A stretch of 32,000 bases of DNA from assembly GCA_023818895.1 (NCBI GenBank), contig JAMWCX010000001.1, positions 569,789 to 601,788 of the forward strand, written 5' to 3'. Numbering within the stretch: the stretch's first letter is position 1; each line of letters starts with the position of its first letter. Origin of the DNA: Candidatus Omnitrophota bacterium (GTDB lineage: Bacteria > Omnitrophota > Gorgyraeia > 2-01-FULL-45-10). Position numbers and translations under genes: made by a program. The notes under the pieces are model-generated. The model saw only the letters and a program-made list of their open reading frames with translations. It searched no databases and had not been told where the DNA came from. Positions 3,741-32,000 of the stretch are shown here, in pieces.

Positions 3741-4560
3741 TTTTCCTCCTCATTATCATATTGTTAAAAAAGAAATTTGAGCCGGCTATGAATGGACCAT
3801 TAACCAGCTCCACTTTATTATAAGAAAGTCTTCGCCTTGTATGCGCATCGATAACCATGACACCTGCCTCTTCTGCTATTAGCTGGCCCGCGGCTGTATC
3901 CCACCCCATAGTTGGACCCAATCTGGGGTAGACATGTGCTTTTCCCTCAGCAATAAGACAGAACTTGAGAGAGCTGCCAACTAAGATATATTCAACCCTA
4001 TTATATAGTTTTTTAAGGCCTTCGACATACTCCTCGAGCTCTTCCGTCCTGTGCGATCGGCTCACTGCTACAATTATCTTATCTTTGGGAGTTTCATCGC
4101 TGATGCGGATCCGCTTCCTCCTACCATCCCCAGCTATCTTGAAAGCACCCCTATCCTTTAACGCATAATATATATCTCTATAAATAGGCACGCCAATCAC
4201 GCCCACAACCGGTGCACCATCCTCTATAAGCGCAATATTGATGGTGAACTCCTCGTTACGCATTATAAATTCCCTCGTACCGTCGAGTGGATCGATAAGC
4301 CAAAAAACGTTCCAATTCTGTCGTACTTCGTACGGAACAACGTCCTCTTCCGAAACAATCGGTATGTTAGGATAGAGTGCCTTAAGCCTGCTCTCTATAA
4401 AATCATGAGACAACTTATCCGCAAGTGTAAGAGGTGACGAATCCTCTTTGTGCTCCACGAAAAGCTCTTGCCTTCTATAGATATCTAGAATCTTCTCCCC
4501 CGCTTCACGGGCGATTGTTATTACCTCCTCGACTTTTATACCTCCAAAGGTGTCCCGCAC
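3730..4560 (-). CDS. cysQ: 3'(2'),5'-bisphosphate nucleotidase (PAP phosphatase), inositol monophosphatase superfamily
   Basis: GTG at 4560 has AAGAGGG upstream. Metal-binding and substrate motifs are VSEED, WLIDPLDGTREF and WDTAAG. It lies directly downstream of the PAPS synthase. Confidence 0.85.
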   Translation of the reverse strand: MRDTFGGIKVEEVITIAREAGEKILDIYRRQELFVEHKEDSSPLTLADKLSHDFIESRLKALYPNIPIVSEEDVVPYEVRQNWNVFWLIDPLDGTREFIMRNEEFTINIALIEDGAPVVGVIGVPIYRDIYYALKDRGAFKIAGDGRRKRIRISDETPKDKIIVAVSRSHRTEELEEYVEGLKKLYNRVEYILVGSSLKFCLIAEGKAHVYPRLGPTMGWDTAAGQLIAEEAGVMVIDAHTRRRLSYNKVELVNGPFIAGSNFFFNNMIMRRKSET

Positions 4561-4561
4561 C

Positions 4562-6349: not shown

Positions 6350-6910
6350 CTATACCCTTTCTTCGATGCGAGCGGCGGTATTGCCATTTAACAAAACGCC
6401 CTCTGTCGATTTATTCAGCACCATCGCGTTAAAAAGATCGAACATGCTCTGCGCCTGCTCATAGAGATCCTTTATCTTGGCAAGCCTCTCTTTAAATACC
6501 TTTACCGACTCATCTCCGGACTCGTCTCCATTAACGACGGTATCTATCATATTGCTTGATGATCTTATCATATCATTCACAGCCGATAACCTGCTGTTCG
6601 CCATCGACTTGATCCTGTCTTTTATGACTTTCGAGATGTCAATATCAGCCTCATAATAATCCTTCCTCGAGCCTTTGACCCAGACCCGCCGCACCGCGCC
6701 ATACCTTTCAAGAGCCCTTATATTTACGCTGGCGCTGGCCTTGCTTATCTTGAGCCTCTTCACCATGTCATCGAGAGACATCGCGCCGTTGTGAAAATAC
6801 AAGACAACATAGAGTTGGGCCATTATGTTATTGAGCCCGAACTTACTGCATATCTGGTTCACTCTGTCCAGGAAAATATCCTGCGCTTCGATCAGTTTTT
6901 CCTTAGTCAT
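6350..6910 (-). CDS. Winged-helix transcriptional regulator, GbsR/MarR family
   Basis: ATG at 6910 has an AAGGA Shine-Dalgarno sequence. The wHTH core is MSLDDMVKRLKISKASASVNIRALERYGAVRRVWVKGSRKDYYEA. A long helical C-terminal region follows, as in GbsR-type regulators. Confidence 0.75.
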   Translation of the reverse strand: MTKEKLIEAQDIFLDRVNQICSKFGLNNIMAQLYVVLYFHNGAMSLDDMVKRLKISKASASVNIRALERYGAVRRVWVKGSRKDYYEADIDISKVIKDRIKSMANSRLSAVNDMIRSSSNMIDTVVNGDESGDESVKVFKERLAKIKDLYEQAQSMFDLFNAMVLNKSTEGVLLNGNTAARIEERV

Positions 6911-7756: not shown

Positions 7757-9214
7757 TTATCTAACGCGTATTGCGGATTTTAGGTATTTAAATAGGTGAA
7801 AACAACTCAAATTCCGATATATGGCATGCAGGCCGAGATTGGATCTACATTTTGAAACTAGGGTCTTTGCCATAAGGCTAATCATGGACCTCTTCCCTTT
7901 ATAGACATTGTAATCAAACCATATAAAAGCTTTCTGTATCTTCTTTTTAGGAAAGCCTGGCAGGTCAAGAACTGCCCTACATCTTTCAAGCTCTCCTGAA
8001 GGCATGCGTTTAAATAGTTCCTTTTTACGACATACATCATAGAGTTCAGTGCCAGGATAAGGGAAGAATATATGGGCAAACGCTTGATCGGGAAGACATT
8101 CTCTGTTTATCGCGATAGTCTCTTTAAAATCATCATAAGTTTCGCCGGGAACGCCTATTAGATTATAGAAACATATCTGGATACCATTTTGCCTCGCCAA
8201 GGCAACCGCCCTGATAATATCATTGTTCGAATAATCGCGCTTAAGAATCTCTTTCCTGACCCTTTCGCTTCCGGACTCAACACCTATCCTTACGAATTTA
8301 AAATTACTCTCCTTGAATAACCTAAAAAGGCCTGAGAAGTCTGATCCGCGAGTTATCCTGAGGTTTGTACCGAATAAAAGAGGCTCTTTTAGTGATGTAT
8401 TAACTCTCTTCAAGGCTGCACATAATTCATTCGCCCATGCCATATTCGCTCCTATCGTCTCAACCTCAAGGTATATTTGCTTTGTCCGCGGATAAGCTTC
8501 CACGATCATAATTATCTCCCGCGTGATGCTATCCACTGATCTAAGCCTCACGTATTGTCCTTGGGCAATCCTCCTGAGCGCGTGATTACAGCAATATGTA
8601 CAGTTAAAAGGGCATCCGCGGCCGAGAAGAACGGGTTGCCATACATCTTCTCCACCGGATATCCATTTTTGCCATATCTCTCTATCCGGAAAAGGCAGAC
8701 CGTCGATATCCTTTACGAAAGGCCTTGGATCGTTTTTTTCTACGGTGCCGTCTTTCATGATCCATAGATTTTGGATTCCCGATGGCACTTCTACCTTCGT
8801 AAGTTTCTCAGCAAGCTCAAGAGTGGGATATTCGCCTTCACCTATACATATGGCGTCGAAGGGTCCTTTCGCCACATCATTGGGGTTGAGCGATGCATGG
8901 GCTCCGCCGACAAGGAGGAAAAGTTCCGGATGCATTTTCTTTATATAACGGGCCGCTCTCTCGATAAAAGTATATTCACTAGTCACGGCGGTAAAACATA
9001 CTAGCCGCGGATTAAACCTCCCTATCGCCTCTTGGATCAATGTCTTATTGCGAGCTCCCAGCATCCTGCTCAATACCACAAGCTCTGTATTATGCCCTTG
9101 CGATTTTAGAAGAGACGAGATGTAAGAGATACCAAACTGCATCTGTTCTGGTGTGCGTAGAGGGCGCTCGGGGGTTGCAATATCATCTACTGAAGATATA
9201 AACAATATATGCAT
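7757..9214 (-). CDS. B12-binding-domain radical SAM enzyme (class B type)
   Basis: The N-terminal cobalamin-binding-like Rossmann segment is MHILFISSV...LVCFTAVTSEY...LLVGGAHAS. The radical SAM cluster motif is GRGCPFNCTYC (CxxxCxxC). The TIM-barrel segment is GVESGSERVRKEILKRDY...NLIGVPGET. Confidence 0.85.
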   Translation of the reverse strand: MHILFISSVDDIATPERPLRTPEQMQFGISYISSLLKSQGHNTELVVLSRMLGARNKTLIQEAIGRFNPRLVCFTAVTSEYTFIERAARYIKKMHPELFLLVGGAHASLNPNDVAKGPFDAICIGEGEYPTLELAEKLTKVEVPSGIQNLWIMKDGTVEKNDPRPFVKDIDGLPFPDREIWQKWISGGEDVWQPVLLGRGCPFNCTYCCNHALRRIAQGQYVRLRSVDSITREIIMIVEAYPRTKQIYLEVETIGANMAWANELCAALKRVNTSLKEPLLFGTNLRITRGSDFSGLFRLFKESNFKFVRIGVESGSERVRKEILKRDYSNNDIIRAVALARQNGIQICFYNLIGVPGETYDDFKETIAINRECLPDQAFAHIFFPYPGTELYDVCRKKELFKRMPSGELERCRAVLDLPGFPKKKIQKAFIWFDYNVYKGKRSMISLMAKTLVSKCRSNLGLHAIYRNLSCFHLFKYLKSAIRVR

Positions 9215-10766: not shown

Positions 10767-12140
10767 TTAGCCACAGTTAAAATATTTATCGTAAACAATG
10801 GCGGGAATGATATTCATGGTAGACAATATCCTGAGAGGGATCCTAAGGAAGCGTATATAGTTATAGCTTGTGGGATAGTCACGAAATGTCTTTGGCGCCT
10901 CCGCGAGGTATTTGTCCAGCTCTTGGTGAGTTATTCCGAGTCTCTTTATACATAGATCAATGATTTTTGGATCCTCGATCACATATACTTCCTTAATTCT
11001 CTCTAATGCTTCGTCTCTGGTCATCTGGCCGGATCTTACTAGAGCCGAATAATTGAACTTACGCCTATCTATATTAAACTTTACACGCAGCACATACGTC
11101 ATGAGACTTTGGTAGAGATCATCGTAATAATGAGCTCCCGGATATCTCCACCCCAGTTCTGTTATAATGGCTTCCGCTTCCTTTCTCACATAGGGTACAT
11201 AATACAATAGAGGTACGGTTCTGATACCTCTCAATACAATATAATAAAAAAGATGCCATAGATCCAAATTAAACCCCGGGTCTTCGGGCTTCCATCTTCT
11301 CAGCTTAACAGAGCCAAATCTGCGATGAACATTTTTAAGATACTTACCGTCTAGGTAATTCCATACGAGCGGGCTGATACCTTCAGTTCTGAATGACTGG
11401 CCGATTATAACATATTTTACACCTTCCCTGAATGCGGTTCCATACAGAGCACTTGCTATTCCTATATCCGTCCCCTCCTCCATATCTGGAGTGGAAGCTT
11501 TTAGAAACGCTATCTTAATATCTTTCGATTCACGCCAATCAGAGGTAATGGTCCTAAGTTCCACCCCAAGCTTTGCGGTAACCTTACGCATATTCTCGCC
11601 GGCAACCGGATTACCGAATCCGTCATTAAAATGAACCGCTAACGGCCGTAATCCGAATTTCTTCAGGAGATATAGTGTGTAGGTACTGTCACGTCCGCCA
11701 CTCAAACCAGCGATACAATCAAACTTCTTCCCTATTCCGGATTTTTTTATCTTTTCGATGATCCTCGCAAGCTTACGGCTACCTTCAGGGGTAAGCGGAT
11801 ACGCGCGTTCCAATCTGTCGTGAAGCTTGCAGAAATTGCATTCACCCTTTTCATCAAATGTTACTCCTGGGACGGTAGTATCTATTATGCACCGCGAACA
11901 GACCTTATATTCCATTTTTGAGATAACCTTTTTTTGCAACATCTCTCCGATTTGCACGCCTTTTTCTATCCTGCGAGGTGCTTCAAATTCGGCAACAACA
12001 AGCTCCCCCGCAAACTCATTGTAGGGCCCCTGGGCGACAACGCCTTGACGACCGACAGCAAGTGAGCATCCTACCATCTTCCTGCCTTCGTATGGCCCAC
12101 CAACAATATAACCAACGCTAGTAGCACTAATAATTACCAA
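10767..12140 (-). CDS. N-acetyl-sugar amidotransferase (WbuX/PseA/WbpG family, PP-loop ATP pyrophosphatase); its 5' end encodes the C-terminal part of a C-N hydrolase domain
   Basis: From M76 (ATG at 11915) it has the zinc ribbon CSRCIIDTTVPGVTFDEKGECNFC, the PP-loop FDCIAGLSGGRDSTY, and the later YYDDLYQSLMTYVLRVKFNIDRRK...SGQMTRDEALE. Residues 1-55 (VIISATSVGYIVGGPYEGRKMVGCSLAVGRQGVVAQGPYNEFAGELVVAEFE) continue the nitrilase-superfamily fold of ORF 12134-12745. This frame stays open upstream to 12203. The tracked start is a TTG with no Shine-Dalgarno sequence. Confidence 0.85.
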   Translation of the reverse strand: MVIISATSVGYIVGGPYEGRKMVGCSLAVGRQGVVAQGPYNEFAGELVVAEFEAPRRIEKGVQIGEMLQKKVISKMEYKVCSRCIIDTTVPGVTFDEKGECNFCKLHDRLERAYPLTPEGSRKLARIIEKIKKSGIGKKFDCIAGLSGGRDSTYTLYLLKKFGLRPLAVHFNDGFGNPVAGENMRKVTAKLGVELRTITSDWRESKDIKIAFLKASTPDMEEGTDIGIASALYGTAFREGVKYVIIGQSFRTEGISPLVWNYLDGKYLKNVHRRFGSVKLRRWKPEDPGFNLDLWHLFYYIVLRGIRTVPLLYYVPYVRKEAEAIITELGWRYPGAHYYDDLYQSLMTYVLRVKFNIDRRKFNYSALVRSGQMTRDEALERIKEVYVIEDPKIIDLCIKRLGITHQELDKYLAEAPKTFRDYPTSYNYIRFLRIPLRILSTMNIIPAIVYDKYFNCG

Positions 12141-12745
12141 ATTGTAAAGGTTCGCGAGAGTAAAATATGGCTTAAACCACTTTTCTCCATACGGGTCTCT
12201 CCTTCAATAACCGAATAATCGACGGTCCACGATGATGGTGTGAGGATTATTTGCGGCATCATCCTGGCCAGAGCATGGCCTATATGTAGGCTGTCAAGAT
12301 AATTATCCGCGCATATATTTACACCTACAATGCCAAAGGGTGTTTCCACAACTAACAGGCGGTCACCAACAGCATAATATTCCTGCTCTACCACGAGAAG
12401 ATTGATTTTATGATATTTTAGAACAATCTCGCCTGCGGAATCAATTAATATGGCAGTATTGTACACGCGGTCTCGTGCTTTCTCTGTCAGACCTGCGCAA
12501 ATATAAATACCTTTCTGGCTAGCTAATTTACAAAGCCTGTCGCTATAAGGCCCTGGCACTGGCTTGGCTTCTGTCTTTGCGCTCGGATGGGTCCACCCAA
12601 GATCAAGTGTTTCCGGCAAAAGCACGATATCACACTCTTTCTGAACCGTTTCCTTTATCATTTCTTCAGCACGATTGAGGTTACGGTCGGGCTCACCCCC
12701 TTCGACTAGCAATTGCCCCATACCTACTTTGATATATTTTCCCAT
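12134..12745 (-). CDS. Carbon-nitrogen hydrolase (nitrilase superfamily) domain, N-terminal two thirds; frameshift-separated from the downstream amidotransferase frame
   Basis: ATG at 12745. A candidate Glu-Lys-Cys triad is present: DIVLLPETL, VLKYHKINL, GVNICADNY. The ORF ends in non-family sequence (ETRMEKSGLSHILLSRTFTIW) after PSSWTVDYSVIEGE. The -1 frame continues with family-like DPYGEKWFKPYFTLANLYNLVIISATSVG. Confidence 0.8.
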   Translation of the reverse strand: MGKYIKVGMGQLLVEGGEPDRNLNRAEEMIKETVQKECDIVLLPETLDLGWTHPSAKTEAKPVPGPYSDRLCKLASQKGIYICAGLTEKARDRVYNTAILIDSAGEIVLKYHKINLLVVEQEYYAVGDRLLVVETPFGIVGVNICADNYLDSLHIGHALARMMPQIILTPSSWTVDYSVIEGETRMEKSGLSHILLSRTFTIW

Positions 12746-20498: not shown

Positions 20499-23210
20499 CT
20501 AAGAAGCGCCGAGCAGAGCATCATATATCCTGGCGTATTTTGTCACTGCCTCATCGAGCGAAAGATATCTTTTGGCGATATCTCTGCAGCGACGCCTTAA
20601 TACCTCACCTTCCTCTTTGAGAATAAGCAGTCTTTCAACCGCTTTTTTATAATCATCGGCTGTGAAATTCTCAACCACCACCCCCACATTTCCTTCGCGC
20701 ACTATCTCTTCCGTATCGCCTACGCCCGGATTTATTATCACAGGAACGCCCGAGGAAAGAAATTCTCCCAGCTTTATGGGTGATGACCCTATTTTCTTAT
20801 ATGGATTTATAAAGAAAAGCCCGGCGTCAGCGATTCTTAAATACTCTGGCATATTTTCAAAAGGCACTCCCTGTATTATTCTCAGTCTTTGAATATCTAT
20901 TCCGGTCTTGCGAGCCTTTTCAAGAAGGCTAGATGGTTCATCGTTGGTAACGACAATAAAAACGGATTCCGGAATGCTATCGGATGCCGCCTTAAAGAAA
21001 TCGATCATCTCATTTATCATATAGAAAGTACCTATCTTCCCGGGATACATCAGAATGAAACTCTTCTCCACTCCAAGCTTTTTCTTGAGCTCTAACCTTT
21101 CGCCGGAGTTGTAATCAAACCTTCTCGTATCGACACAGCAGGGAATCACATCCATAGGGACATTTCTGCGTACTACATAGTCAAGGGTCTTGTTAAGGCA
21201 AAGGTGCTTATTGGTCAGCACCGTAATGGCGTCGGTTGTCTTTAACATCCTCTCTTCCGCCTTCTTGACAAGCTTAAACTGAATGCTGTCTTCCTTCCAC
21301 AATCCTCCCCCAACATACTCTTCTGCTAACAAGCCACGCATATCGAAAAGAACTCTAACATTTAAAAGTAAAAGTCGCGATATCGCCATAACCATAACTC
21401 CAGGCGTAATACCACGCACATGGATTATCTTGACACGCTTACGGGCAATCACCCACAAAGCGACAAACGTCCCTAAAAAAAGGTCGAAAAAGGTAGAAAG
21501 CACTGGCGGTTTCTTGTGATAGATAAGGTACTTCCATTCGATATGGTGAACTTTTAGCTCCTGTTTCAACTTTTTTATCCTATCGCGACCAGCCGCATTA
21601 AGGTCCCTTCTCTTCTCGTAGGTCATCAAGATAAAGTCGTATCCTCTTTTTGACAGTTCCTTCATATACGGTACTGCCTGAGAAGGAAGGATAGGCTCAA
21701 GAAGGCCGTTATAAGAGAGGAACAACACTTTCTTGCGCGAGGCCGATACCTTTTTGAATGATTTAAGCCGTCGGATCGACCTAAAGGTCTTAACGATGAC
21801 ACCCTTAAACTGCGTCATCGCCACCTTCGCCAGACGGAAAGGATTACGCCAGTTATCCGCTAAGAACGATCTTAAGTTCATCGGCAGTATCACTTTAAGG
21901 CGCGCTTCGAGATATAGCCTCTCAAAGGTCTCCTTAGGCATATCAGCGTAGTTAATCTGAGGCGCCTCAGGATCTCCTATATCATCCCACTTAGGCAGTG
22001 CCTTTCCTTCATCTTTCAGTTTTTCGTAACTCGGCGTTCCCGGTAACGGCATAAATACGTTGAATCCTATCATGCTTGGCCGCACCTTCCTGATGAAATC
22101 TATCGTTTTCTTGAAGTCATCTTCGCGCTCACCGGGGTAACCGACGATTATATTCGCCTGAAACCTCATGCGCGCCCGGCGTGTGAGTTCCGCCGCCCGA
22201 AGGCTTTCCTCCACTTTCTGGCGTTTATTCATAAGGTCCAGCACCATCTGAGACCCCGATTCAAAGCCATATTCTATACCGACACATCCGGCCTCCTTCA
22301 TAAGCTGCAACAGCTCACTTGTGATAATGCTTGCTTTGGCCTGGGCAAACCATCTTATCTTTTTATTTATTCCTTTATCTATGAAAAGATTGAGCAATTC
22401 TTCGGCTCTCTGTTTTGAACTCAGGAACATATCCTCAGCAAAATAAAGCGCCTCGACATTATAATTCGATATAAGATACTCTATCTCTTTAAGCACCCTC
22501 GCTGGAGAATGAAATCTCACCTTACCGCTGAAGACCAAGGGTCCTGCACAGAAGTTACAACGGTATGGGCATCCGCGTGCTGTGAATATTGAAGTTGTTC
22601 TAAGACTTAAGTTTCTCGATGTAAAACGGCTGGGCCTGGTATAAAACTTCATATCCAAAAGGTGCCTGGCCGGCATTGGTAGTTCATCTATATCCTTTAT
22701 TGGATCACGCGGTGCGTTAGCAATGAATTCACCGTTTTTCCTGTAATATATGCCGGTTATGTTTTCCGTAGCCTTGCCATTTGCTATATCAAGCAGCGCA
22801 AATTCACCTTCCCCCTTTACCGCTATATCTATTTCTGGGTTTTCCACTAGACTAAGAATAGGCTCTCCAGATACATGCGGTCCACCTAGCACTATGAAAG
22901 CTTCTTTCAAAGACTTTTTTATATAACGTGAGATATGGCCAACGTCGGACATATTAGGCGTTGTGGCGCTAATACCGATGAGAGTCGAGCCAAAAGAGCG
23001 AATTTCGTTCATCATAATGCTGTCAACCTTATCAAAATCCATTCCGTTTTTACGCAAGAGTATGTCACGATCTATTATTTGGACGCGATGGCCGCCCTTT
23101 TCGAGGACCGCCGCTATATAAGCCAGCCCCAGCGGCGGCCAAAACTGCTTATTCTCGTCAATCCGGCTTCTGCGCCTTGATAATAAGGGATATATAAGGG
23201 TTATATTCAT
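20499..23210 (-). CDS. Fusion protein: N-terminal B12-binding radical SAM domain plus C-terminal GT4 (GT-B fold) glycosyltransferase
   Basis: Single 903-aa ORF. Residues 1 to about 445 hold the B12-binding-like segment (LIGISATTPN...IVLGGPHVSG) and the cluster motif ARGCPYRCNFC (Cys214/218/221), plus GFESGSQMV and IIVGYPGERE. Residues from about 495 to 903 hold VLFLSYNGLLEPILPSQAVPYMKELSKRGY and the C-terminal GSSPIKLGEFLSSGVPVIINPGVGDTEEIV, an E-x7-E-like retaining GT4 signature. Confidence 0.85.
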   Translation of the reverse strand: MNITLIYPLLSRRRSRIDENKQFWPPLGLAYIAAVLEKGGHRVQIIDRDILLRKNGMDFDKVDSIMMNEIRSFGSTLIGISATTPNMSDVGHISRYIKKSLKEAFIVLGGPHVSGEPILSLVENPEIDIAVKGEGEFALLDIANGKATENITGIYYRKNGEFIANAPRDPIKDIDELPMPARHLLDMKFYTRPSRFTSRNLSLRTTSIFTARGCPYRCNFCAGPLVFSGKVRFHSPARVLKEIEYLISNYNVEALYFAEDMFLSSKQRAEELLNLFIDKGINKKIRWFAQAKASIITSELLQLMKEAGCVGIEYGFESGSQMVLDLMNKRQKVEESLRAAELTRRARMRFQANIIVGYPGEREDDFKKTIDFIRKVRPSMIGFNVFMPLPGTPSYEKLKDEGKALPKWDDIGDPEAPQINYADMPKETFERLYLEARLKVILPMNLRSFLADNWRNPFRLAKVAMTQFKGVIVKTFRSIRRLKSFKKVSASRKKVLFLSYNGLLEPILPSQAVPYMKELSKRGYDFILMTYEKRRDLNAAGRDRIKKLKQELKVHHIEWKYLIYHKKPPVLSTFFDLFLGTFVALWVIARKRVKIIHVRGITPGVMVMAISRLLLLNVRVLFDMRGLLAEEYVGGGLWKEDSIQFKLVKKAEERMLKTTDAITVLTNKHLCLNKTLDYVVRRNVPMDVIPCCVDTRRFDYNSGERLELKKKLGVEKSFILMYPGKIGTFYMINEMIDFFKAASDSIPESVFIVVTNDEPSSLLEKARKTGIDIQRLRIIQGVPFENMPEYLRIADAGLFFINPYKKIGSSPIKLGEFLSSGVPVIINPGVGDTEEIVREGNVGVVVENFTADDYKKAVERLLILKEEGEVLRRRCRDIAKRYLSLDEAVTKYARIYDALLGAS

Positions 23211-23211: not shown

Positions 23212-24543
23212 TCACCCTTCCAATTTGAGTTCTTTTGTCCTGATAAATTCGTCTAAGATCGCCGAAGCAAGAACTATGAATAATGGTGAATAAAGGTCTC
23301 GATGCCTAAAAGCTGAACCTATGTTGCCTTCGGCCATGGAATTGACACCGATTCCTATGACAAGCAACATTCCGACAAGCACAGCAACATCAGGTTTTTT
23401 TAATAAAAGCCTGAAATATCCCAGGATTGAAAGAAGAAGCACCATATACCATAAAAGCATCTGGGGAAAAGCAAATATCCTGGACCTCGAAATCATCTGC
23501 CATGGAAAGGGTGACAACATGAAATAGATTATGTCAACGGCCATAATCATGATTAATTGAGGAACATCTATCACACCCCTGCTGAGTTTGACCATAAATT
23601 CGCCTGGATAGAATTGATAACCAGCAAAATCTGATTGGGAAATGGCTATCTGCGTATCATAACATAGATAAATTGCGTCAATTATCTTATCATACTTTAC
23701 AAACAGCATATAACCTACTAAAATAATGACAGCCAGAACCATTAAAGTTGTAAAAATACCCTTTTGTATCTTGGAACATAATGCCGCATATATCTTGAAC
23801 ACTAACATCATCGTAGCGCCAAGTACGATAAGAGTGAAATAGAAAATCTGTGAAAAAAAGTATAATGTAGTCATAGCACCGACCAAAATTATCATCTTCC
23901 AAACAGACACCCTCCCATAAATAGCGTCAATAAATAAGTAAATACAAGCCGTAAATAAAAAAATTAACAAGGGGTCTTTAAGATTTGCTACCGACCATCT
24001 TACCAACGAGGGGTAGAATACCGTCACCAGCATGGCTATTCTGGCAGCGCTATTGTTAAAAGTCTTCTTAGCAATTAAATATGAGAGCCATCCTACAAGA
24101 GTTCCGATAATACAATTTATTAGTTTAGACACTACTGGATGAAAGCCGAATATTTTATAGAATAATGCTACCAGATATGTAAATGGATTTGACCCATACT
24201 GGAAGGATTTACCAGTTATAGCCCATACCCAAGTATATGGCCTCCCTTCCCATTTATGAACAAGTGCCAAGCTCTTTACAATATACAAAAGATCATCGCC
24301 CGAAGTACTATGGAACCCTTTCGTATAAAAGTACGCATGAAGCGCAACCGCCAGGATGACCCTTAGCGTAAAACCAGCAATAAGGACACCGATTACGAAT
24401 TTCCTGTCCTCAAGAGGCGTGTTGCGATATATAGCATATAAAATTACCCCGAACACAAGAAACAAAAACATCGCCCCAGTCATAAAATATCCCAAAACAC
24501 CCAAGATTATCGCTGAAAATATAAGATAAAATTTTTCTCTCAT
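23212..24543 (-). CDS. Polytopic membrane protein: GT-C/PMT_2-like glycosyltransferase or Wzy-type polymerase
   Basis: 443 aa with about 11-12 hydrophobic helices by eye. SGDDLLY follows an early helix, and the section KLINCIIGTLVGWLSYLIAKKTF...VFYPSLVRWS resembles ArnT/PMT_2-type proteins. Its start is in an ATGA overlap with the upstream GT2. The region is AT-rich by eye. Confidence 0.45.
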   Translation of the reverse strand: MREKFYLIFSAIILGVLGYFMTGAMFLFLVFGVILYAIYRNTPLEDRKFVIGVLIAGFTLRVILAVALHAYFYTKGFHSTSGDDLLYIVKSLALVHKWEGRPYTWVWAITGKSFQYGSNPFTYLVALFYKIFGFHPVVSKLINCIIGTLVGWLSYLIAKKTFNNSAARIAMLVTVFYPSLVRWSVANLKDPLLIFLFTACIYLFIDAIYGRVSVWKMIILVGAMTTLYFFSQIFYFTLIVLGATMMLVFKIYAALCSKIQKGIFTTLMVLAVIILVGYMLFVKYDKIIDAIYLCYDTQIAISQSDFAGYQFYPGEFMVKLSRGVIDVPQLIMIMAVDIIYFMLSPFPWQMISRSRIFAFPQMLLWYMVLLLSILGYFRLLLKKPDVAVLVGMLLVIGIGVNSMAEGNIGSAFRHRDLYSPLFIVLASAILDEFIRTKELKLEG

Positions 24544-25502
24544 GAAATTATAGTTTTTCGTGAAATAATTCGTGACTTGCAGCTTTTAAACCAGCCTGCA
24601 AAAGTCGCCGCATCTATAAAAATCATCAAAAGCAAACCCAGCCCCAAATAAGCCGGCATATGAGTAGCCCGTAGATAAGACTCCCGCCGGTTTCCAAATA
24701 TCTTCTTCGCTATCCTTATCAAAAGACCGCCGACTAACACCGCGTAGAATATTGGCGACACAAAAATTCCCAAACCGATAAGAACAATCGCACCCATATA
24801 CATCACAAGCACAGGCACATGCCAGTTCCATATTCTTCCGGCATTGGCGTTATGGAAAGAATATGTAGAAAACCTATTCCATACGTCCTTAAAGTCTTTA
24901 GGAATATCCCAGGTAATTATCGCTGAAGGACAATATCTAACCTTAAAGTTGGCCTCGTCTATCTTCATCATGAAGGCCCTGTCCTCCCCGGCCCTCTCAT
25001 CCGGAAAGCCGCCAACCGCCTGCCATACCGATCTTCGCATAAGCGAAGAGGCGATCGAGCGCTTCCGCATCCATTTACCATCCACCATCACCTGCGGCTG
25101 CATCATAACGAGCGCCAGGCATTCTTTAAAAATCGTATCTGCCCGCGGGGCATAATGTCCGTATACAACATCCGCTGATGCTATCTCCATCTCCTCTGCC
25201 AGATTTTTAAGCCAGTCTTTGTCGAGCTCGATTCCGCCGTCCGTGAAAGCGATAATATCGCCCGATGCCTTCTCCACACCGATGTTTCTGGCCTTCCCCG
25301 GATAAGCAGATTCCGCCAAGATTATCAGCCTATTGTGCCTTCCCTCTTCGGCATCTTTGAGAAAGCTTACCGTAGCATCGGCCGATCCCGCATCGACAAA
25401 TATGCATTCGTCGGGACGACGTGTCTGTGCATCTATCGACCTCAAAAGCCTCCCAACGCTATTTTCCTCATCCTTTAAAGGCACGACCAGCGATATCTTC
25501 AA
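24540..25502 (-). CDS. GT2 glycosyltransferase with C-terminal transmembrane helices
   Basis: TTG at 25502 has a GGAGA Shine-Dalgarno sequence 6 nt upstream. Motifs are ISLVVPLKDEENSV, IFVDAGSADAT, FTDGG and GEDRAF. Three or more hydrophobic helices occupy the last 90 or so residues. Confidence 0.8.
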   Translation of the reverse strand: MKISLVVPLKDEENSVGRLLRSIDAQTRRPDECIFVDAGSADATVSFLKDAEEGRHNRLIILAESAYPGKARNIGVEKASGDIIAFTDGGIELDKDWLKNLAEEMEIASADVVYGHYAPRADTIFKECLALVMMQPQVMVDGKWMRKRSIASSLMRRSVWQAVGGFPDERAGEDRAFMMKIDEANFKVRYCPSAIITWDIPKDFKDVWNRFSTYSFHNANAGRIWNWHVPVLVMYMGAIVLIGLGIFVSPIFYAVLVGGLLIRIAKKIFGNRRESYLRATHMPAYLGLGLLLMIFIDAATFAGWFKSCKSRIISRKTIIS

Positions 25503-25512: not shown

Positions 25513-26832
25513 TCAGGACATAAAACATTTATTACAAAGGTCTATCTTGCCGCTCACCATAGCTTTGCGGAATTTCCTGTAGCGCTTAGAGTTCCATACC
25601 TTACCTATTGCTCCATTGTCAAGGCGCAGCCCCTTCAAAAGAGTCCCGTCAAAATCTATACAGCATGGCGTAAGATTCCCATTACTCATTATGGCTACAG
25701 ACCTATAAGGCCATCCGCACAAACTTTTCTTTTTTTCTATGGAGACCTTTTTCTTCTCTTTGCCGAAAGCAAGCCCGCCGTCGGTCGGTGCCAGCGCCGA
25801 GCCGGCCTCATCGCCAAGGTTGGTGAACTCATAAAAATAGCCCTTGAAGAGTATTCGGTCTGCCCCCAGTTCTTCCCTGAATTTCTTATATGAGTCAATC
25901 TGGCCTTCTGTATACTTGGTAACTACCATCTGCATCACTATCTCAGGTCTTACAAGAGCTCTTTCCTTTTTGGCCTTTGCGAGGTTTCTAACAAAATTAC
26001 ATACCTTGTCGAAATCGCCGCCTTGTCTGAAACTCTCATACGCCGAACTGTCTGTCCCATCCACAGAGATGCTTATCAAGTCGATATCGGTCTCGAGGAG
26101 CTTTGAGGCGATTTCAGTTCCCTCAGCGAAGCTTCCGTTTGTATGCAGCTCTATCCTCGTATAAGGGCCTGAGACATCACGCAGAGTTTTAAGAAAGCTG
26201 AATATTTTCTTGTTAAGAAGCGGCTCACCAAAAAGGAATGGATAGATAGCATCAACGTATCTAAAATAACTCCTGTTCTTATCTATTATCGTATCAAAGA
26301 CGCTTTCGGACAACAGCATAGCCGGCCTTGTAAGCTGGCTTAAGCCTGTAGGGCATGCTCTGCATTTTAAATTACAGACAGAGGCTGTCTCGATATAAAA
26401 TTCCGAGGGCCGTCCGATCCCTATAGACAGTTTGAGTTTTTTCGAAAGCTGTATAAGGAGTTTATTTATAAAATACGGCGCTTTCTTAAATATCAGGCCG
26501 ATAAACCCAATACGTCCAATCTCAGCGACAGAACCTTTCCCGGAAACATCTACCAAAAACAATTTTTTGTACTTAAGATGACTGGCAAGGATAATCGTAT
26601 TTAAACTGAAGCCGTGGTCAACTACAATCGCATCGAATTTCCTTCCCTTAAGCCCTGCAATACCTCCCTGCTCTATAACCTCAACGCCGAAATCGTATGC
26701 CTTCGCTATGCCTGGTGTGTTTTTGGTAATAAGTGTAATATGGCTATATGGCAGATATTTCTTCACAGCCTCAAGAGACGTGTAAATCCATGAATAATTT
26801 GATATGAGCGCTATATCTTTTACCTTATTCAT
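25513..26832 (-). CDS. Radical SAM enzyme with a SPASM/twitch-like C-terminal Cys-rich domain and an N-terminal extension of about 140 aa
   Basis: Cluster motif ETASVCNLKCRACPTG (CxxxCxxC), then FGEPLLN. The C-terminal cysteines are CGWPYRSVAIMSNGNLTPCC and CNKCF. The start is in an ATGA overlap. Confidence 0.8.
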   Translation of the reverse strand: MNKVKDIALISNYSWIYTSLEAVKKYLPYSHITLITKNTPGIAKAYDFGVEVIEQGGIAGLKGRKFDAIVVDHGFSLNTIILASHLKYKKLFLVDVSGKGSVAEIGRIGFIGLIFKKAPYFINKLLIQLSKKLKLSIGIGRPSEFYIETASVCNLKCRACPTGLSQLTRPAMLLSESVFDTIIDKNRSYFRYVDAIYPFLFGEPLLNKKIFSFLKTLRDVSGPYTRIELHTNGSFAEGTEIASKLLETDIDLISISVDGTDSSAYESFRQGGDFDKVCNFVRNLAKAKKERALVRPEIVMQMVVTKYTEGQIDSYKKFREELGADRILFKGYFYEFTNLGDEAGSALAPTDGGLAFGKEKKKVSIEKKKSLCGWPYRSVAIMSNGNLTPCCIDFDGTLLKGLRLDNGAIGKVWNSKRYRKFRKAMVSGKIDLCNKCFMS

Positions 26833-28316
26833 GCCGGAACATTGTCCTTCTTAAAAAATTCGGCCATAAAACTAAAAAGGCTTCTAATCTCCTCTTTCGT
26901 CACCGAAAGGAAAATCCAACCAAGCAAAACAGCAATCTTGATTAAAAAAGCAAGTAAGTCACCATCCGGTATAGCCAATAATAAAGCGAGAACTGCTAAA
27001 CTCAACACAAGGCTCCTTATATTATGTTTAGTAAATGAAAAACCTGTATCAAGATGGAAATATGCTGCCTGAGCTACGACAAATAATATATTCGTCAGGG
27101 CTATCGCTATATTGAAACTCCTGAAATCCACAAACGGAATAATTCTCAAGACGAAATAGGAGCCAAGAAGCGCTACATTGTACCCTATAGTCTGTATCCA
27201 TATAATACCATCGAACTTTTTCCGCGCGATTAACGAGGTATTAAACATGTAGAAAAGCACAAAGAATATGTCACCAATAGCCTGTATGGCTAAAAGATCG
27301 TAGGCCTTCATAAATTCGCTGGAGAAAAGTATGAGGATCATATATCTTCTGAATATTATGCATAAAGCCGCTATGGCAGTGGAAGCGAATATCGCAAACC
27401 GAGCAAACTCGTTCAAAGAGCGATTTACATCCTTTTTTTCACCTAAGGCGCACATCTCGGGATAGAAATGGCCCCAGAGGGCATTGGTGACAAAAGGAAG
27501 ATAATATGCGCTTAAAGCATACGCTACCTGAAAGAAACCGTTCGCCTCTATGCCGTATTGTTTCAGGAAAAGGCCTCGTATAAAAAGCATGACGAGCATT
27601 GTTACGTTCCCCGGTAGGAAAGACATCACGCTGTACTTAAAAAGCTCAACTGAAGCCGCTCTTGCTTCTCTTCCTCTAAGAAGCGAAAAATTATATCCTG
27701 GCACAAACGAAAGCCGCTTCCTCAAAAAATATAGCGAGAAAAGAAAGCTTAAAAGACCAAGCGTTATTATCTGAACGAATATGCCATCCAGCCCAAAGAA
27801 ATAAACCGAAACGACAAGAATCGCAAGGCCGACTGCTGTATACAATATGGTGAGTTTCGTATAATCAGCTATCTTGCCAAATGCATAGAATATCGGGGTG
27901 GCCATCCCTAGAAGATACACTGCAAAAGGAGTTGTAAGCGCGATCCCAACAAAATACGGCCAGTATTTGGCGTCGGCGAACACAAACTTTGTGAGCGGAA
28001 CGGTAAATGGCAAAACGGCTACTATAAAAAGCATCGCCGCTATGAACTGAAAGGTATTGGCGCTATCAGTCACCAAAGGAAGAGAGGCCCTGTCATTTTT
28101 TGCCAGTCTCTCAGACACGCCTTTTGTGACTCCCATAGCTATATTAAGAGAGCAAAGCTGCACGGCAAAGACTGAAAACATCTGGGCCTGACCGGCAAGG
28201 CCTATGCCTATAGGCCCAAGCTGCCAGGCAAGGAACTTGGCGCGTATCAAGCCAGCGAATATCTTGATCAGAGTCGCCACACCCATCACAGATGTTATTT
28301 TAAGTATCTTCTTCAT
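26829..28316 (-). CDS. wzx: Wzx-type oligosaccharide/polysaccharide flippase (MOP superfamily)
   Basis: 495 aa with about 12-14 TM helices. The N-terminus (KITSVMGVATLIKIFAGLIRAKFLAWQLGPIGIGLAGQ) is typical of polysaccharide-biosynthesis flippases. The start is in an ATGA overlap. Confidence 0.75.
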   Translation of the reverse strand: MKKILKITSVMGVATLIKIFAGLIRAKFLAWQLGPIGIGLAGQAQMFSVFAVQLCSLNIAMGVTKGVSERLAKNDRASLPLVTDSANTFQFIAAMLFIVAVLPFTVPLTKFVFADAKYWPYFVGIALTTPFAVYLLGMATPIFYAFGKIADYTKLTILYTAVGLAILVVSVYFFGLDGIFVQIITLGLLSFLFSLYFLRKRLSFVPGYNFSLLRGREARAASVELFKYSVMSFLPGNVTMLVMLFIRGLFLKQYGIEANGFFQVAYALSAYYLPFVTNALWGHFYPEMCALGEKKDVNRSLNEFARFAIFASTAIAALCIIFRRYMILILFSSEFMKAYDLLAIQAIGDIFFVLFYMFNTSLIARKKFDGIIWIQTIGYNVALLGSYFVLRIIPFVDFRSFNIAIALTNILFVVAQAAYFHLDTGFSFTKHNIRSLVLSLAVLALLLAIPDGDLLAFLIKIAVLLGWIFLSVTKEEIRSLFSFMAEFFKKDNVPA

Positions 28317-29626
28317 AATATGCCGATAAGCTCATCATATATCTTCTTTTCATTCTCAATAGAATACCTTCTGGGATAACGCGATTCGGCATACCGCCTG
28401 CAGTATGCCCGCATATCATTACGCAGAGACTCATTAGTCAGTATGGCAATCGCCTTTCTGGCAAGTTCATCAATATCACGAAACGGCACAATATAACCCA
28501 TCTTACCGTTTTCGATAAATTCCGGATGCCAGTCGAAATCATAGGCCACAATAGGCGTTGAAGCAAGCGCCGCTTCCAAAAGCGTAACGCCTCCATGCGG
28601 AGCCAGAAGCACATCTGCGGTGTAGAAAAGGTCTGTAAGCTCATCGTTGTTTCGGCTGCCAAGGAAAAGCACGCTATCGCCAAGGCCCATAAAATTCGCG
28701 GTCGTCTTTAACTCTTCTTTCATAGGACCGTCCCCCGCCATAACTAACACGGCGTTAGAAACAGCCTTCTTAACTAACGCCATTGCCCGGATGGCGTCTT
28801 CGGGATATTTCACGGGATGCAGTCTTCCCACATAAAACAGGGCCTTTTTACCTTCTATCCCCAGTTCTTTTCTTCGGTCTTTTCTTGAAGAGACCGCCGC
28901 ATAGTGCCTTTCGGCAACACGCACGCCGAAGGCTCTGTATTTCCCGGTACATGAGAAAGGAAAATAGGGGGAATTCCTGTAAAGATTCCTGTCGGCCATA
29001 ATCAAATTGGCGGCTCTCATAATAATCCTTTCGAAAAACCTCTCCAGGCCTCTGGAAAAGAATATCGGAGAAGACGTCTTGCCCAGCCCTTTATACTTCA
29101 TATCAAAATCCGAATTTAGATGAAGCACATACGGCAGTCTGAAAAGCCTCGCCATGATAAGGGCATTCAAACCCAAAAGATGCGGGTCATGCGATTTCAC
29201 AAAAGTTATATTAGAGCGCCATATAGTCCCGAAGGCTATACCAAGAGCCTTTAGCTCCACAAGCAGCATGCTGACCCTACAAAATCCAGCCTTATAGATC
29301 GCATTATCAGGGTGGGCAGCCAAGCTATGGAAGAACACCCTTTCATTCAAGATTTCAAATCTGTCATGCCCATTTGCGTAATCAAAATATATATAGTGGT
29401 CCTCATTAATGTAATCATCGAGGAAAAGATCCTCGAACATGCCGTCGTATTTATTGCTTATAAGATCGCATATAGCAAACGAAAAACGATTTACAGGCAT
29501 ACCTGGTTTAAAGCGCCTTTTGCCCAGAAGAGCCGACACTCCCATTACCGCCAATACACAGACGGCAAAGAGAATGGCAAACACGAAAAATGCTGCTATA
29601 TCCAATGCTTTTATTAATGTCTTCAT
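28313..29626 (-). CDS. GT4-family (GT-B) glycosyltransferase with an N-terminal membrane anchor
   Basis: It has an N-terminal TM helix (AAFFVFAILFAVCVLAVMGV). The C-terminal half has LFYVGRLHPVKY, VMAGDGP and APHGGVTLLEAALASTPIVAYD, the Glycos_transf_1 signature. Confidence 0.8.
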   Translation of the reverse strand: MKTLIKALDIAAFFVFAILFAVCVLAVMGVSALLGKRRFKPGMPVNRFSFAICDLISNKYDGMFEDLFLDDYINEDHYIYFDYANGHDRFEILNERVFFHSLAAHPDNAIYKAGFCRVSMLLVELKALGIAFGTIWRSNITFVKSHDPHLLGLNALIMARLFRLPYVLHLNSDFDMKYKGLGKTSSPIFFSRGLERFFERIIMRAANLIMADRNLYRNSPYFPFSCTGKYRAFGVRVAERHYAAVSSRKDRRKELGIEGKKALFYVGRLHPVKYPEDAIRAMALVKKAVSNAVLVMAGDGPMKEELKTTANFMGLGDSVLFLGSRNNDELTDLFYTADVLLAPHGGVTLLEAALASTPIVAYDFDWHPEFIENGKMGYIVPFRDIDELARKAIAILTNESLRNDMRAYCRRYAESRYPRRYSIENEKKIYDELIGIL

Positions 29627-30943
29627 CTATTGCCTACGAGCGCATAGCGACTCCAATATACAAGCCAGCTGGGCCGCCCTATTCCTCCTGGTGAGCCTGA
29701 TTATCTCCTCCGGATTACTTCTGCACTCAGTCGTTCCTCTGAGGATGTATTCCTCATATAATTGCAAAATAGCGTCTTTTAATTCGGTTTCATTTTCGGC
29801 GATCACACCGCTTTTGGTTCTTCTTATAAGATCCGCTACTATACCGCTTTTAGCCGCCATGGCCAGTATAGGCCTACCTGAGCCTATGTAGTCATAAAGC
29901 TTCGCTGAATACCATCCTTCCCCGCCTTCTCCCCGCCACTGGATAAAAAGAAGCGCGTCGGAAGATCTCTGTATCTCTAATGATCTTTCGTAAGAGACCA
30001 TGCCGGATTCCTTAACAATATCATGCAAACCGAAAGATTGCGATAGCTTCTCCACATCAGGTTTATCATAACCGAATACACACAAATAAAGTTCTATTTT
30101 CCGCCTATCGATCTTCCCATGCGCAACTAAATCAGCGACCGCTTTGAAAAAAGGCTCAAGCGGCTGATGATCTTTATGAAGTTTGCCGGTATAACTTATT
30201 GTAAACTTAGCATTTTTAGAAAAACCTATTCGCCCGAAATCCTCTTCGTCAAAACCATTTTCTATCACGCTGACCACGCCCCTATTATCTCTAAGCGACT
30301 TCTTAAGCCGCTCAGCCCAAGGCTCAGAGACCGTGATAACGGAATCGGCATCCTTCAAGATGCTCTTCTCCATTATTCTCAAAGCGGCTTTTTTTATAAA
30401 TGACCTGGGCCTGAAATGGTCCTCTGCCCAAAGATCGCGAAGATCAGCTACCCATGGCATTCCGGAAAGCGTTTTCAGTTTTCGCGCGACAAGATGGGCA
30501 GTTTCGGGTGGAGATGTGCTGAATATCACATCAACGCGCTCCTGCTCAATTATCCTCTTACCCTCCTCCAAGGCAAGAGAGTACCAGCCTATTTGGTCAT
30601 CAGGCATAGTCACCATTTCTCGCACAAACGAAACTCTTTTGGCCGGCTTTTTAGGACGCAAGTATGTCTTAAGCTCGCTATCGTCAGCGGTTGTAATTCT
30701 TGACACGATGCGCTTGAGGCTTCCTATAACATCCTTATAATCGGTCCTGAAAACCTTGGTTCCGTTGAGCGCGTATTCCGATTCCGCATCACCGGCCAAA
30801 GGCTTGCCCGCCTTAACGGTTAAAACAAGAGGACTCCACCCATACTCGGGCAGAAACTTCGCGAATTTGAAAGCCCTCATCGTTCCAACGCCTTCCATAG
30901 GAGGCCATGCGTAAGATATCATCAACACTTTTTTTACGCTCAT
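29627..30943 (-). CDS. GT4-like (GT-B) glycosyltransferase
   Basis: The N-terminus KVLMISYAWPPMEGVGTMRAFKFAKFLPEYGWSPLVLT is typical of a GT4 subfamily. The C-terminal SAKLYDYIGSGRPILAMA is a nucleotide-sugar binding half. Confidence 0.75.
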   Translation of the reverse strand: MSVKKVLMISYAWPPMEGVGTMRAFKFAKFLPEYGWSPLVLTVKAGKPLAGDAESEYALNGTKVFRTDYKDVIGSLKRIVSRITTADDSELKTYLRPKKPAKRVSFVREMVTMPDDQIGWYSLALEEGKRIIEQERVDVIFSTSPPETAHLVARKLKTLSGMPWVADLRDLWAEDHFRPRSFIKKAALRIMEKSILKDADSVITVSEPWAERLKKSLRDNRGVVSVIENGFDEEDFGRIGFSKNAKFTISYTGKLHKDHQPLEPFFKAVADLVAHGKIDRRKIELYLCVFGYDKPDVEKLSQSFGLHDIVKESGMVSYERSLEIQRSSDALLFIQWRGEGGEGWYSAKLYDYIGSGRPILAMAAKSGIVADLIRRTKSGVIAENETELKDAILQLYEEYILRGTTECRSNPEEIIRLTRRNRAAQLACILESLCARRQ

Positions 30944-30947: not shown

Positions 30948-31982
30948 CTAGATCAACACCCCTTTATTATCTGGACATACTCTGCATGGACCGGGAAGCT
31001 TTTCGGCGTCTGATGAGAGGAAGACGTTCCTCATGCGCCTGAAAAAAGCATTATTCCAAATCTCTTCATCGCGGTAGTTTCCATTGCCTTCCATATTTAA
31101 CAGCATCATAGAGCAACTGGAGATATTGCCATCCCCGTCAAACCGAACCTGCGAGAAGTGTGAAACGCACTTATTTTGACGCAACGTCTTATCTATAAGC
31201 GGCGGCAATGTGAATTTTCTCCGTACCAAAGGCGGATATGCGTTCATGATAGATCTAATTTCCCTTCTTATCTTTGGGTCGGCCATGAGAGAGCGCTCTT
31301 CAGCGGTCAGCCCTTCAACGGGACATGGCAGAAAATTACATAAGAAGGTATGGTCGACGCCCAGATTCAGGCTCGTTTGGATCATGTCTGGTATGTACTT
31401 ATAATTTTGCCTATCTACTATGAAAGACAACTTAACTTTAAGTGGCGAATTGCGCCTATTCCTCTCATCTACCAAATTCTTAATAGCTCGGTATATCTTG
31501 GCATAATAATTTTCATCCATACCTGTCATTCTATTGAATTCTTTAGCGTTATGGCCATTTATACTTATTGTTATCCCGTCTAATTTAGAATTTAAGATAT
31601 TGTCGAGATTATCCTCTATTGTAGTGCCGTTCGAGAAGGTCTTAACCGTCATATGACGCATCGCGGCATAGTCGACCATCTTAAAGAAGTTCTTATTAAG
31701 CATAGGTTCGCCGGAACCTATTATTTGCACATTCAACGCATTTTCAAAACGGTCTATGATCTCCTTGAACATGGCAAAATCCATGTCCCTGGTAGTCGTC
31801 TGGGCATGCTCGTAATCAGCTGGCACTCGTTTCGAGTGAGTTGGACACATATCGCACGAAAACGTGCAGCGTGAAGTCGCGACTATCGAGATGGTAACGG
31901 GATCATAGTCGAGAATCTCTTTCCGCGCTGACATTCTATACTTTAGGTAGTTGAACTTTTGCGAAAAGGTTAGATCTCGCAT
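30948..31982 (-). CDS. Radical SAM enzyme with a SPASM/twitch-like C-terminal domain
   Basis: The ORF track starts at TTG 31985; an ATG follows immediately at 31982. Cluster motif ATSRCTFSCDMCPT (CxxxCxxC), then GSGEPMLN. The C-terminal cysteines are CVSHFSQVRFDGDGNISSCS and PGPCRVCPDN. Confidence 0.8.
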   Translation of the reverse strand: MRDLTFSQKFNYLKYRMSARKEILDYDPVTISIVATSRCTFSCDMCPTHSKRVPADYEHAQTTTRDMDFAMFKEIIDRFENALNVQIIGSGEPMLNKNFFKMVDYAAMRHMTVKTFSNGTTIEDNLDNILNSKLDGITISINGHNAKEFNRMTGMDENYYAKIYRAIKNLVDERNRRNSPLKVKLSFIVDRQNYKYIPDMIQTSLNLGVDHTFLCNFLPCPVEGLTAEERSLMADPKIRREIRSIMNAYPPLVRRKFTLPPLIDKTLRQNKCVSHFSQVRFDGDGNISSCSMMLLNMEGNGNYRDEEIWNNAFFRRMRNVFLSSDAEKLPGPCRVCPDNKGVLI

Positions 31983-32000
31983 CAATACGCCCGCTATGTC

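Follow-up and report, generated by a model that had tools for sequence, protein, structure and literature searches.

Class B radical S-adenosylmethionine (SAM) enzymes carry a cobalamin (B12)-type Rossmann domain ahead of a radical SAM barrel, and the characterised ones act on antibiotics, cofactors, peptides and lipids. Is there any such enzyme in the assembly of polysaccharides? No class B radical SAM enzyme proven in that role was found in the literature searched. This report concerns a gene of Candidatus Omnitrophota bacterium (assembly GCA_023818895.1, contig JAMWCX010000001.1), lying in a stretch of 32,000 nucleotides (nt) at positions 569,789 to 601,788 of the forward strand, the whole of which is called the window below. 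One uninterrupted open reading frame (ORF) in the window encodes 903 amino acids (aa), and this polypeptide, here called the fusion, consists of a complete class B radical SAM half and a complete glycosyltransferase (GT) half of the GT-B fold and GT4 type. An earlier annotation made from the letters of the stretch (the original prediction) had pointed out this architecture and knew of no characterised example. We find the pair of radical SAM and GT to be a solid uncharacterised lead to undescribed sugar chemistry, within reach of experiment, which is less singular than the original prediction held and overturns no current concept.

Some described systems resemble the fusion in part. AprD4 (6FD2), the 1,2-diol dehydratase of the apramycin pathway, combines radical SAM chemistry with a B12-like N domain and acts on a sugar of a pseudo-oligosaccharide; unlike the fusion, it is a stand-alone enzyme of an antibiotic pathway. 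Note that the B12-like domain of AprD4 is not known to bind cobalamin, so the domain can be present without the cofactor. The hopanoid side chain is made by HpnI, HpnK and HpnJ with a similar logic, in that a GT acts and a B12-type radical SAM enzyme then remodels the new sugar on the lipid. However, HpnI belongs to GT2 and not to GT4, the Hpn enzymes come from separate genes and work on a hopanoid, and hopanoid genes are absent at the cluster studied here. The closest functional precedent is GenK and GenD1 of gentamicin synthesis, which are cobalamin-dependent radical SAM sugar C-methyltransferases and methylate after glycosyl transfer. They are likened to the fusion by function only, since they work on soluble substrates in secondary-metabolite pathways and have no GT fusion.

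The solved class B enzymes MgmA/QCMT (9CCB), TsrM (6WTE/6WTF), CysS (9N1B-D), TokK (7KDX/7KDY) and OxsB (5UL2-4) share with the fusion the N-terminal Rossmann B12-type domain and the CxxxCxxC barrel. They are its best matches by sequence (MgmA, E 6e-20) and by fold (E 1e-16 to 5e-22), yet the identity is only 15-20%, none of them is fused to or paired with a GT, and they act on peptides, tryptophan, carbapenem or pantetheinyl intermediates and nucleosides rather than on glycans. On the GT side, the retaining GT4 enzymes MshA, BshA, PimB', WaaG and HepE have the same two-Rossmann GT-B fold, and the second Glu of the EX7E signature is conserved in the GT half. The identity to them is 13-18%, the first EX7E Glu is absent, and the GT half has motifs of its own, namely an SQ loop, P-C-C-V-D and P-I-K-x-G-E.

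Full-text literature searches found no description of a radical SAM-GT fusion, or of polysaccharides or O-antigens being made with the help of a B12-type radical SAM enzyme. A 2026 review of B12-dependent radical SAM enzymes (PMC12931638), which gives 9CCB as the glutamine C-methyltransferase, was searched by term and contains no mention of a radical SAM-GT enzyme, and the words glycosyl, sugar and fusion are absent from it. Nor did a term search find such an enzyme in the Omnitrophota complete-genome preprint, where radical SAM and GT group 1 domains are reported to co-occur in giant Omnitrophota proteins.

Two modules in one polypeptide

From the N to the C terminus, the Pfam domains of the fusion are B12-binding (PF02310, residues 21-140, 70.7 bits against a gathering cutoff (GA) of 32.1), Radical_SAM (PF04055, residues 210-373, 88.3 bits, GA 29.5), Glyco_transf_4 (PF13439, residues 517-697, 26.5 bits, slightly below the GA of 28.5) and Glycos_transf_1 (PF00534, residues 707-876, 44.1 bits, GA 26.4). 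The AlphaFold2 (AF2) model, with an alignment of 40 homologues, has two folded halves and a short low-confidence join at residues 487-490. Its mean predicted local distance difference test score (pLDDT) is 88.2 and its predicted template modelling score (pTM) is 0.59, a combination that leaves the relative orientation of the halves undefined. The single ORF, its two modules, their boundaries and the polysaccharide context stand as originally described. Structure prediction had also been proposed as a way to see whether the two active sites face each other; both halves fold, but the model does not define how they are placed. Both halves are under strong purifying selection.

The radical SAM half has the features of class B, that is, a CxxxCxxC motif for the [4Fe-4S] cluster and a Rossmann B12-type domain ahead of the barrel. 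The class-B-type unit and the motif CPYRCNFC with Cys214, Cys218 and Cys221 (nt 22548-22571), both named in the original prediction, are borne out by PF02310, by PF04055 and by the three cysteines, which are invariant in 40 of 40 fused homologues. The N-terminal segment is unusually conserved as YPLLSRxRSxxDENKQ(Y/F)WPPLGLAY. Invariant motifs of the B12-type domain are DENKQ(Y/F)WPPLGLAY, GGPH (109-112) and (R/K)GEGE (132-136). A Foldseek search of the PDB with the N half returned TsrM, MgmA, CysS, TokK, OxsB and AprD4. Use of cobalamin and reductive cleavage of SAM are putative activities of this half. Its last helix, at residues 455-490, is cationic and amphipathic, with a net charge of up to +8 in a calculation of hydrophobic moment and charge. 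This basic stretch had been taken for a linker. It is indeed strongly cationic, but the same tail is kept as the C-terminus of radical SAM proteins whose GT is a separate gene, so it belongs to the radical SAM protein and is not a mere linker.

The GT half shows two Rossmann-like domains with a Glycos_transf_1 C-domain, as expected of GT-B. In the PDB, a sequence search with this half alone gave only marginal matches to Gtf3 (E 1e-3), so a fold search was needed to place it. Foldseek then returned MshA, BshA, PimB', WaaG, HepE and sucrose-phosphate synthase (SPS) with TM-scores (TMt) of 0.73-0.81, and these fold neighbours are all GT4. With PF00534 above its GA as well, the C-terminal half does not fail as a glycosyltransferase, which had been named as one way in which the idea could fall. 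The conserved set of residues comprises S510-Q511, H597-x-R-G, D623-x-R, E652, P-C-C-V-D694, Y-x-G-K725-x-G, P-I-K813-x-G-E816 and G829-x-G-D, of which the donor-site motif P811-I-K813-x-G-E816 lies at nt 20742-20780. Residues 569-589 of the GT N-domain (nt 21444-21506) form a hydrophobic helix flanked by Lys and Arg. Two details of the earlier description need correction. The module was placed from about residue 495, and a GT-B module is there, but it starts at K493, which aligns to Met1 of the split GTs. An E-x7-E-like signature was also claimed; its second Glu, E816, is invariant in 40 of 40 homologues, whereas its first position is G or N in most of them. Transfer from a nucleoside diphosphate (NDP)-sugar with retention is assumed for this half from its family assignment.

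Judged by sequence, both halves are clear members of known superfamilies, and neither is accepted by any equivalog-level family. The best curated profile is HpnJ (TIGR03471), with 171.2 bits against a cutoff of 577.6, followed by BchE (TIGR02026) with 170.3 against 481.35. For the GT half, stp3 (TIGR04063, the GT of the PEP-CTERM/XrtA system) reaches 65.1 bits against 442 and WcaI 45.2 against 276. All the NCBIfam families tried (HpnJ, BchE, ApyD, PhpK, AprD4, stp3, WcaI, BshA and MshA) were rejected as far below their cutoffs. TIGR04157 'glyco_rSAM_CFB', a GT family named for its linkage to radical SAM, was also tried and showed no useful relation (27.9 bits against 400). These wide misses, together with the empty literature searches, agree with the earlier statement that no example of the architecture has been characterised.

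Candidate function and the chemistry of the radical SAM half

What could the two halves do together? We consider it somewhat probable, on balance, that the fusion is a bifunctional, membrane-peripheral cytoplasmic enzyme in a Wzx-dependent surface-glycan pathway of this anaerobic Omnitrophota bacterium. The GT4 half would transfer a sugar from an NDP-sugar, with retention, onto a polyprenyl-phosphate-linked acceptor at the inner membrane face. The radical SAM half would cleave SAM reductively, and the resulting 5'-deoxyadenosyl radical would abstract a hydrogen from an unactivated carbon of the sugar or of its substituent. The modification would then be completed, most likely by methyl transfer from methylcobalamin (C-methylation). 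Extension and flipping of the glycan would come afterwards, as would its use on the outer face, for which the neighbouring GT-C enzyme is a possible candidate. The Wzx-type flippase of the cluster places it in a lipid-linked, flippase-dependent glycan pathway. The cationic amphipathic tail and the hydrophobic helix 569-589 suggest peripheral membrane binding, which points to a lipid-linked substrate. For the chemistry, C-methylation is favoured because most fold and sequence neighbours of solved structure (TsrM, MgmA, CysS and TokK) are cobalamin-dependent methyltransferases. By this analogy methylation is a tentative choice, with the chances leaning somewhat against it.

Several points weigh against the proposed function and should be noticed. 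No characterised member of the radical SAM-GT pair was found in full-text literature searches or among the NCBIfam equivalogs, and the AF2 model of the fusion contains no confident inter-domain interface. The first position of EX7E (808, G808 here) is G in 16, N in 15 and E in 3 of 40 homologues; with the first Glu missing, the donor or the mechanism may be atypical. Note that a neighbouring GT which scores as canonical (28313-29626) also lacks the first Glu in a pairwise alignment, so EX7E is not universal. The partner of the radical SAM protein is not fixed either. Related loci were taken from a genome collection and from contigs encoding homologues; in one of them the radical SAM orthologue (60% identity) is followed by a GT2 gene (L013), in another (L030) a class I methyltransferase gene comes next, with a GT2 behind it, and class I methyltransferases form fusions with sister radical SAM proteins of 34-40% identity (P0066, P0083 and P0084 among them). 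Since fusion of neighbours is common in these clusters, fusion alone is weak evidence for channelling. As to methylation in particular, the best curated profiles, HpnJ and BchE, are not methyltransferases, AprD4, which dehydrates a sugar 1,2-diol, resembles the fusion in structure no less than the methylases do (TMt 0.74-0.77), and none of the sequence signatures that could be tested separates a methylase from other radical SAM chemistries.

One alternative keeps the architecture and the pathway but gives the radical SAM half another radical transformation of a lipid- or nucleotide-linked sugar. It might be 1,2-diol dehydration to a deoxy sugar as in AprD4, ring contraction or rearrangement as in HpnJ and OxsB, epimerisation, or oxidation. 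AprD4, which acts on paromamine, is a top match by sequence (E 1.6e-19) as well as by fold, yet its profile (NF033070) covers only the radical SAM core at residues 172-402, with 88.6 bits against 500, and no AprD3-type partner reductase was identified beside the gene. That neither of the two best NCBIfam profiles methylates, and that the substrate of HpnJ is a glycosylated lipid which a glycosyltransferase has produced, also agrees with this alternative. Against these stand the N domain, which scores above the gathering cutoff for genuine B12-binding profiles, and the solved neighbours, which are mostly methylases. In favour of the alternative, the class I methyltransferases fused to sister radical SAM proteins would be redundant if the radical SAM half itself methylated. 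We regard a non-methylating half as possible but doubtful.

The gene pair, fused and split

Is the fusion itself necessary for the function? The halves are fused in the window and in L004/L005, L006, L007, L008 and L009, while they are separate, touching genes in 12 loci (L001, L002/L003, L010, L011, L014, L015, L016, L018, L020, L021, L022 and L025). In the split loci the stop codon of the radical SAM gene typically overlaps the GT start as ATGA, or else the gap is at most about 14 nt, and the two genes are translationally coupled. From residue 495 to its end, the fusion shares 58% identity with the separate GT of L001. The two states are interleaved among relatives: the closest species representatives, L010 and L011, are split at 70% identity, whereas L004, with 74% identity over the radical SAM half, is fused. 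The pair is also present in metagenome-assembled genomes (MAGs) of Nitrospirota (L018, L025). Thus the conserved unit is the radical SAM-GT4 gene pair, usually behind a GT-C-fold membrane transferase. The order of radical SAM and then GT, with immediate adjacency, is kept from 79% to about 43% radical SAM identity across Omnitrophota and Nitrospirota MAGs, although the flanks vary, and the two are adjacent or fused in every examined locus carrying this GT subfamily. The nearest stand-alone GT representatives that could be placed in context (P0140 and P0155) both lie directly after a radical SAM gene. The linkage does not extend across the whole GT family, since its distant representatives P0260 and P0225 follow another GT or a membrane protein.

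These loci suggest that the fusion is an evolutionarily labile, recent and reversible joining of a coupled gene pair, which would not be required for function; with the ATGA overlap it is mutationally cheap. Conserved adjacency with changing flanks is stronger evidence of a functional link than the fusion itself. The original prediction had argued that physical fusion implies action on the same intermediate. A functional link of the halves is better supported here than it was then, through the conserved adjacency, but the fusion is neither obligatory nor special. From the adjacency we infer that the halves may act on the same intermediate, and the fusion would point to sequential steps or to a complex. 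The rSAM-tied partner may change, as with the GT2 gene in L013 or the class I methyltransferase in L030 and in the fused P0066 and P0083.

Another explanation is that the joining is incidental, a small mutation at the stop/start overlap having merged neighbours whose separate steps need not follow one another, without channelling or a complex. The interleaving of fused and split forms among close relatives fits this explanation, as does the pTM of 0.59. So do the many other fusions in the same clusters. GT4-GT4 tandem proteins were recovered in the profile search described below, and two giant polypeptides (P0137 with 2096 aa and P0138 with 2331 aa) have 4-5 tandem B12-binding/radical SAM modules, one of them also with a SPASM domain. 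A fusion of a class I methyltransferase with a GT1 domain and another of a GT1 domain with DUF218 occur in related clusters (Table 1). Such joining of genes seems characteristic of these clusters in general. In an exhaustive profile search of 1.84 billion representatives clustered at 50% identity, only 2 of the best 150 were full-length fusions (P0012 and P0061), and many of the others consisted of a radical SAM protein alone (about 480-500 aa) or of a GT alone (about 400 aa). Against an incidental joining stand an adjacency kept across phyla despite variable flanks, and the key motifs of both halves (CxxxCxxC and the GT donor site), which are both kept in 47 of 48 full-length fusions. We therefore hold it to be unlikely.

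A third explanation, an assembly or sequencing artefact in which a missed frameshift or stop merged two genes, is very improbable and was dropped, for although the genes are split in L010 and L011, the junction recurs in a second, independent NCBI assembly (MCM8761329.1, P0001, which covers residues 1-803 with P788L as the sole mismatch) and in 48 full-length homologues drawn independently from many samples and sources, and where the split GTs have ATG the window has AAG, as fits a genuine fusion.

The 48 full-length homologues (860-930 aa, 36-68% identity) come from a search of 5.8 billion protein clusters, and this answers the earlier proposal to look for the domain architecture elsewhere. 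They are mostly from Omnitrophota MAGs in NCBI, JGI, ENA and Logan assemblies. The exact 903-aa match is MCM8790641.1, 'MAG: radical SAM protein [Candidatus Omnitrophica bacterium]', on a contig of 732,676 bp. The architecture of B12-type radical SAM and GT is therefore not unseen, and is already public under automatic names ('radical SAM protein', 'Radical SAM domain protein'). One protein, P0050 (785 aa, 48% identical, on a contig of 2,155,397 bp), has the radical SAM half with only the N-terminal GT domain and ends inside the GT C-domain; it may be a truncated or decaying fusion.

The surrounding glycan cluster

The whole window is one minus-strand glycan cluster, and its main features are collected in Table 1. 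The gene directly upstream of the fusion encodes a GT-C-fold protein whose stop codon is 1 nt from the fusion start codon. Its AF2 model (pLDDT 89.9, pTM 0.89) matches AglB, STT3, PglB and ArnT in Foldseek with probability 1.0. It has the polytopic membrane core and the acidic residue expected of GT-C, the latter being the invariant D83 in a GDD motif; R61, R413 and R415 are also invariant, and the protein is compact and lacks a large periplasmic domain. In 10 loci (L001, L002, L004, L007, L012, L014, L015, L019, L021 and L022) the gene immediately upstream of the radical SAM gene encodes a homologue or a PMT_2-type protein. The GT2 gene next to it is syntenic with the GT-C and radical SAM-GT4 genes in L004, L006, L007, L012 and L019, and the flippase in L004, L007, L012 and L019. 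At the other end of the fusion, the 243-aa protein has no Pfam or NCBIfam match, and downstream genes in L001, L002, L004, L009, L010, L014 and L016 encode homologues of 33-53% identity, the one of L002 being recorded as Transglut_core.

Table 1. Positions of the fusion, its parts, neighbouring genes and two fusions from related clusters
Feature	Position (nt)	Strand	Basis or remark
Whole fusion gene, 903 aa and stop	20499..23210	-	Uninterrupted ORF; NCBI MCM8790641.1 'radical SAM protein'
N-terminal Rossmann-type B12-binding domain, residues 1-165	22716..23210	-	PF02310, Foldseek, invariant motifs
Radical SAM partial TIM barrel, residues 200-425	21936..22613	-	PF04055; AF2 beta/alpha core 204-385
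C-terminal helical tail of the radical SAM half, residues 426-492	21735..21935	-	AF2 helices 426-453, 457-466, 468-485
GT-B-fold GT4-type module, residues 493-903	20502..21734	-	PF00534, PF13439, Foldseek
243-aa protein, one N-terminal transmembrane helix	19793..20524	-	Start overlaps the fusion 3' end by 26 nt
GT-C-fold polytopic membrane protein, 443 aa, NCBI 'glycosyltransferase family 39'	23212..24543	-	Pfam PMT_2, 36.7 bits against GA 26.1
GT2 glycosyltransferase with C-terminal transmembrane segments	24540..25502	-	PF00535, hydropathy
Wzx-type (MOP family) flippase	26829..28316	-	NCBIfam WzxE, 101.7 bits, below cutoff; many transmembrane segments
Second, stand-alone class B radical SAM gene	7757..9214	-	Pfam B12-binding and Radical_SAM
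Class I methyltransferase-GT1 domain fusion, 664 aa	L020 4318-6312		Related cluster
GT1 domain-DUF218 fusion, 614 aa	L015 11725-13569		Related cluster

There are four radical SAM genes in the cluster, all on the minus strand (7757-9214, 20499-23210, 25513-26832 and 30948-31985), of which two are B12-type and two SPASM/twitch-type. For the SPASM/twitch pair, NCBIfam offers at best generic maturase or twitch models, with scores far below the cutoffs. Related loci have 2-4 B12-type radical SAM genes each. The stand-alone gene at 7757-9214 had been called a paralogue of the radical SAM half. It is of the same class, but with 26% identity (BLASTP, E 2e-34) it is a distant member and not a copy, and a recent duplication was discarded on that ground. 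At 28313-29626 and 29627-30943 (minus strand) lie two neighbouring GT genes, each for a protein of about 437 aa. In one of them only the C-terminal GT1 domain scored, and it has an N-terminal transmembrane segment; in the other only the N-terminal GT4 domain scored, with no NCBIfam match.

The cluster further contains DegT-type sugar aminotransferases, epimerases/dehydratases, several GTs, class I methyltransferases and a polyprenyl-phosphate sugar synthase resembling PgfS/ArnC. What we take to be the gene set known for 2,3-diacetamido uronic acids is formed by a UDP-sugar dehydrogenase, a GFO/IDH/MocA oxidoreductase and hexapeptide acyltransferases. Among the sugar-tailoring genes are WbpB/WbpE/WbpD-like ones and WbuX. 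At 10767-12745 (minus strand) a WbuX-type N-acetyl-sugar amidotransferase (223.8 bits, above cutoff) is directly followed by a short CN_hydrolase (203 aa) of the nitrilase superfamily. The usual partners of WbuX are HisH/HisF-like, and the CN_hydrolase may be an alternative ammonia supplier for the formation of an acetamidino sugar. At 3730-6346 (minus strand) there are a bifunctional adenosine 5'-phosphosulfate (APS) kinase/ATP sulfurylase of 594 aa and a CysQ/inositol-monophosphatase-like gene, which imply that 3'-phosphoadenosine 5'-phosphosulfate is supplied locally and that the glycan may be sulfated; the scanned ORFs of the window yielded no sulfotransferase domain. A small TrmB/MarR-like winged-helix regulator, with weak Pfam matches below the gathering scores, lies amid the biosynthetic genes at 6350-6910 (minus strand).

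What would the pair mean for these bacteria? Most orphan radical SAM enzymes lack any hint of their substrate. Here the tie to a GT gives one, for the substrate should be whatever the attached GT makes or uses. The GT-C, class B radical SAM and GT4 trio might be an unrecognised module for radical cobalamin-dependent tailoring of lipid-linked sugars, in which the GT4 loads the sugar onto a polyprenyl-phosphate carrier, the radical SAM enzyme C-methylates it or rewrites it in another radical way at an unactivated carbon, and the GT-C enzyme delivers it outside. We offer this as a speculative proposal that could well be wrong. If it is true, polysaccharide assembly would, to our knowledge, gain its first proven B12-dependent radical SAM enzyme, the envelopes of Omnitrophota and Nitrospirota would be predicted to hold undescribed branched or C-methyl sugars, and the clusters with 2-5 radical SAM modules would make heavily radical-tailored glycans. 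In practice, the value of the pair lies in being a defined target for work by heterologous expression and by mass spectrometry of glycans. More generally, it suggests that anaerobic uncultured bacteria may decorate their surface glycans by C-methylation or deoxygenation at unactivated carbons, a kind of decoration that standard annotation of O-antigen and capsule genes would miss.

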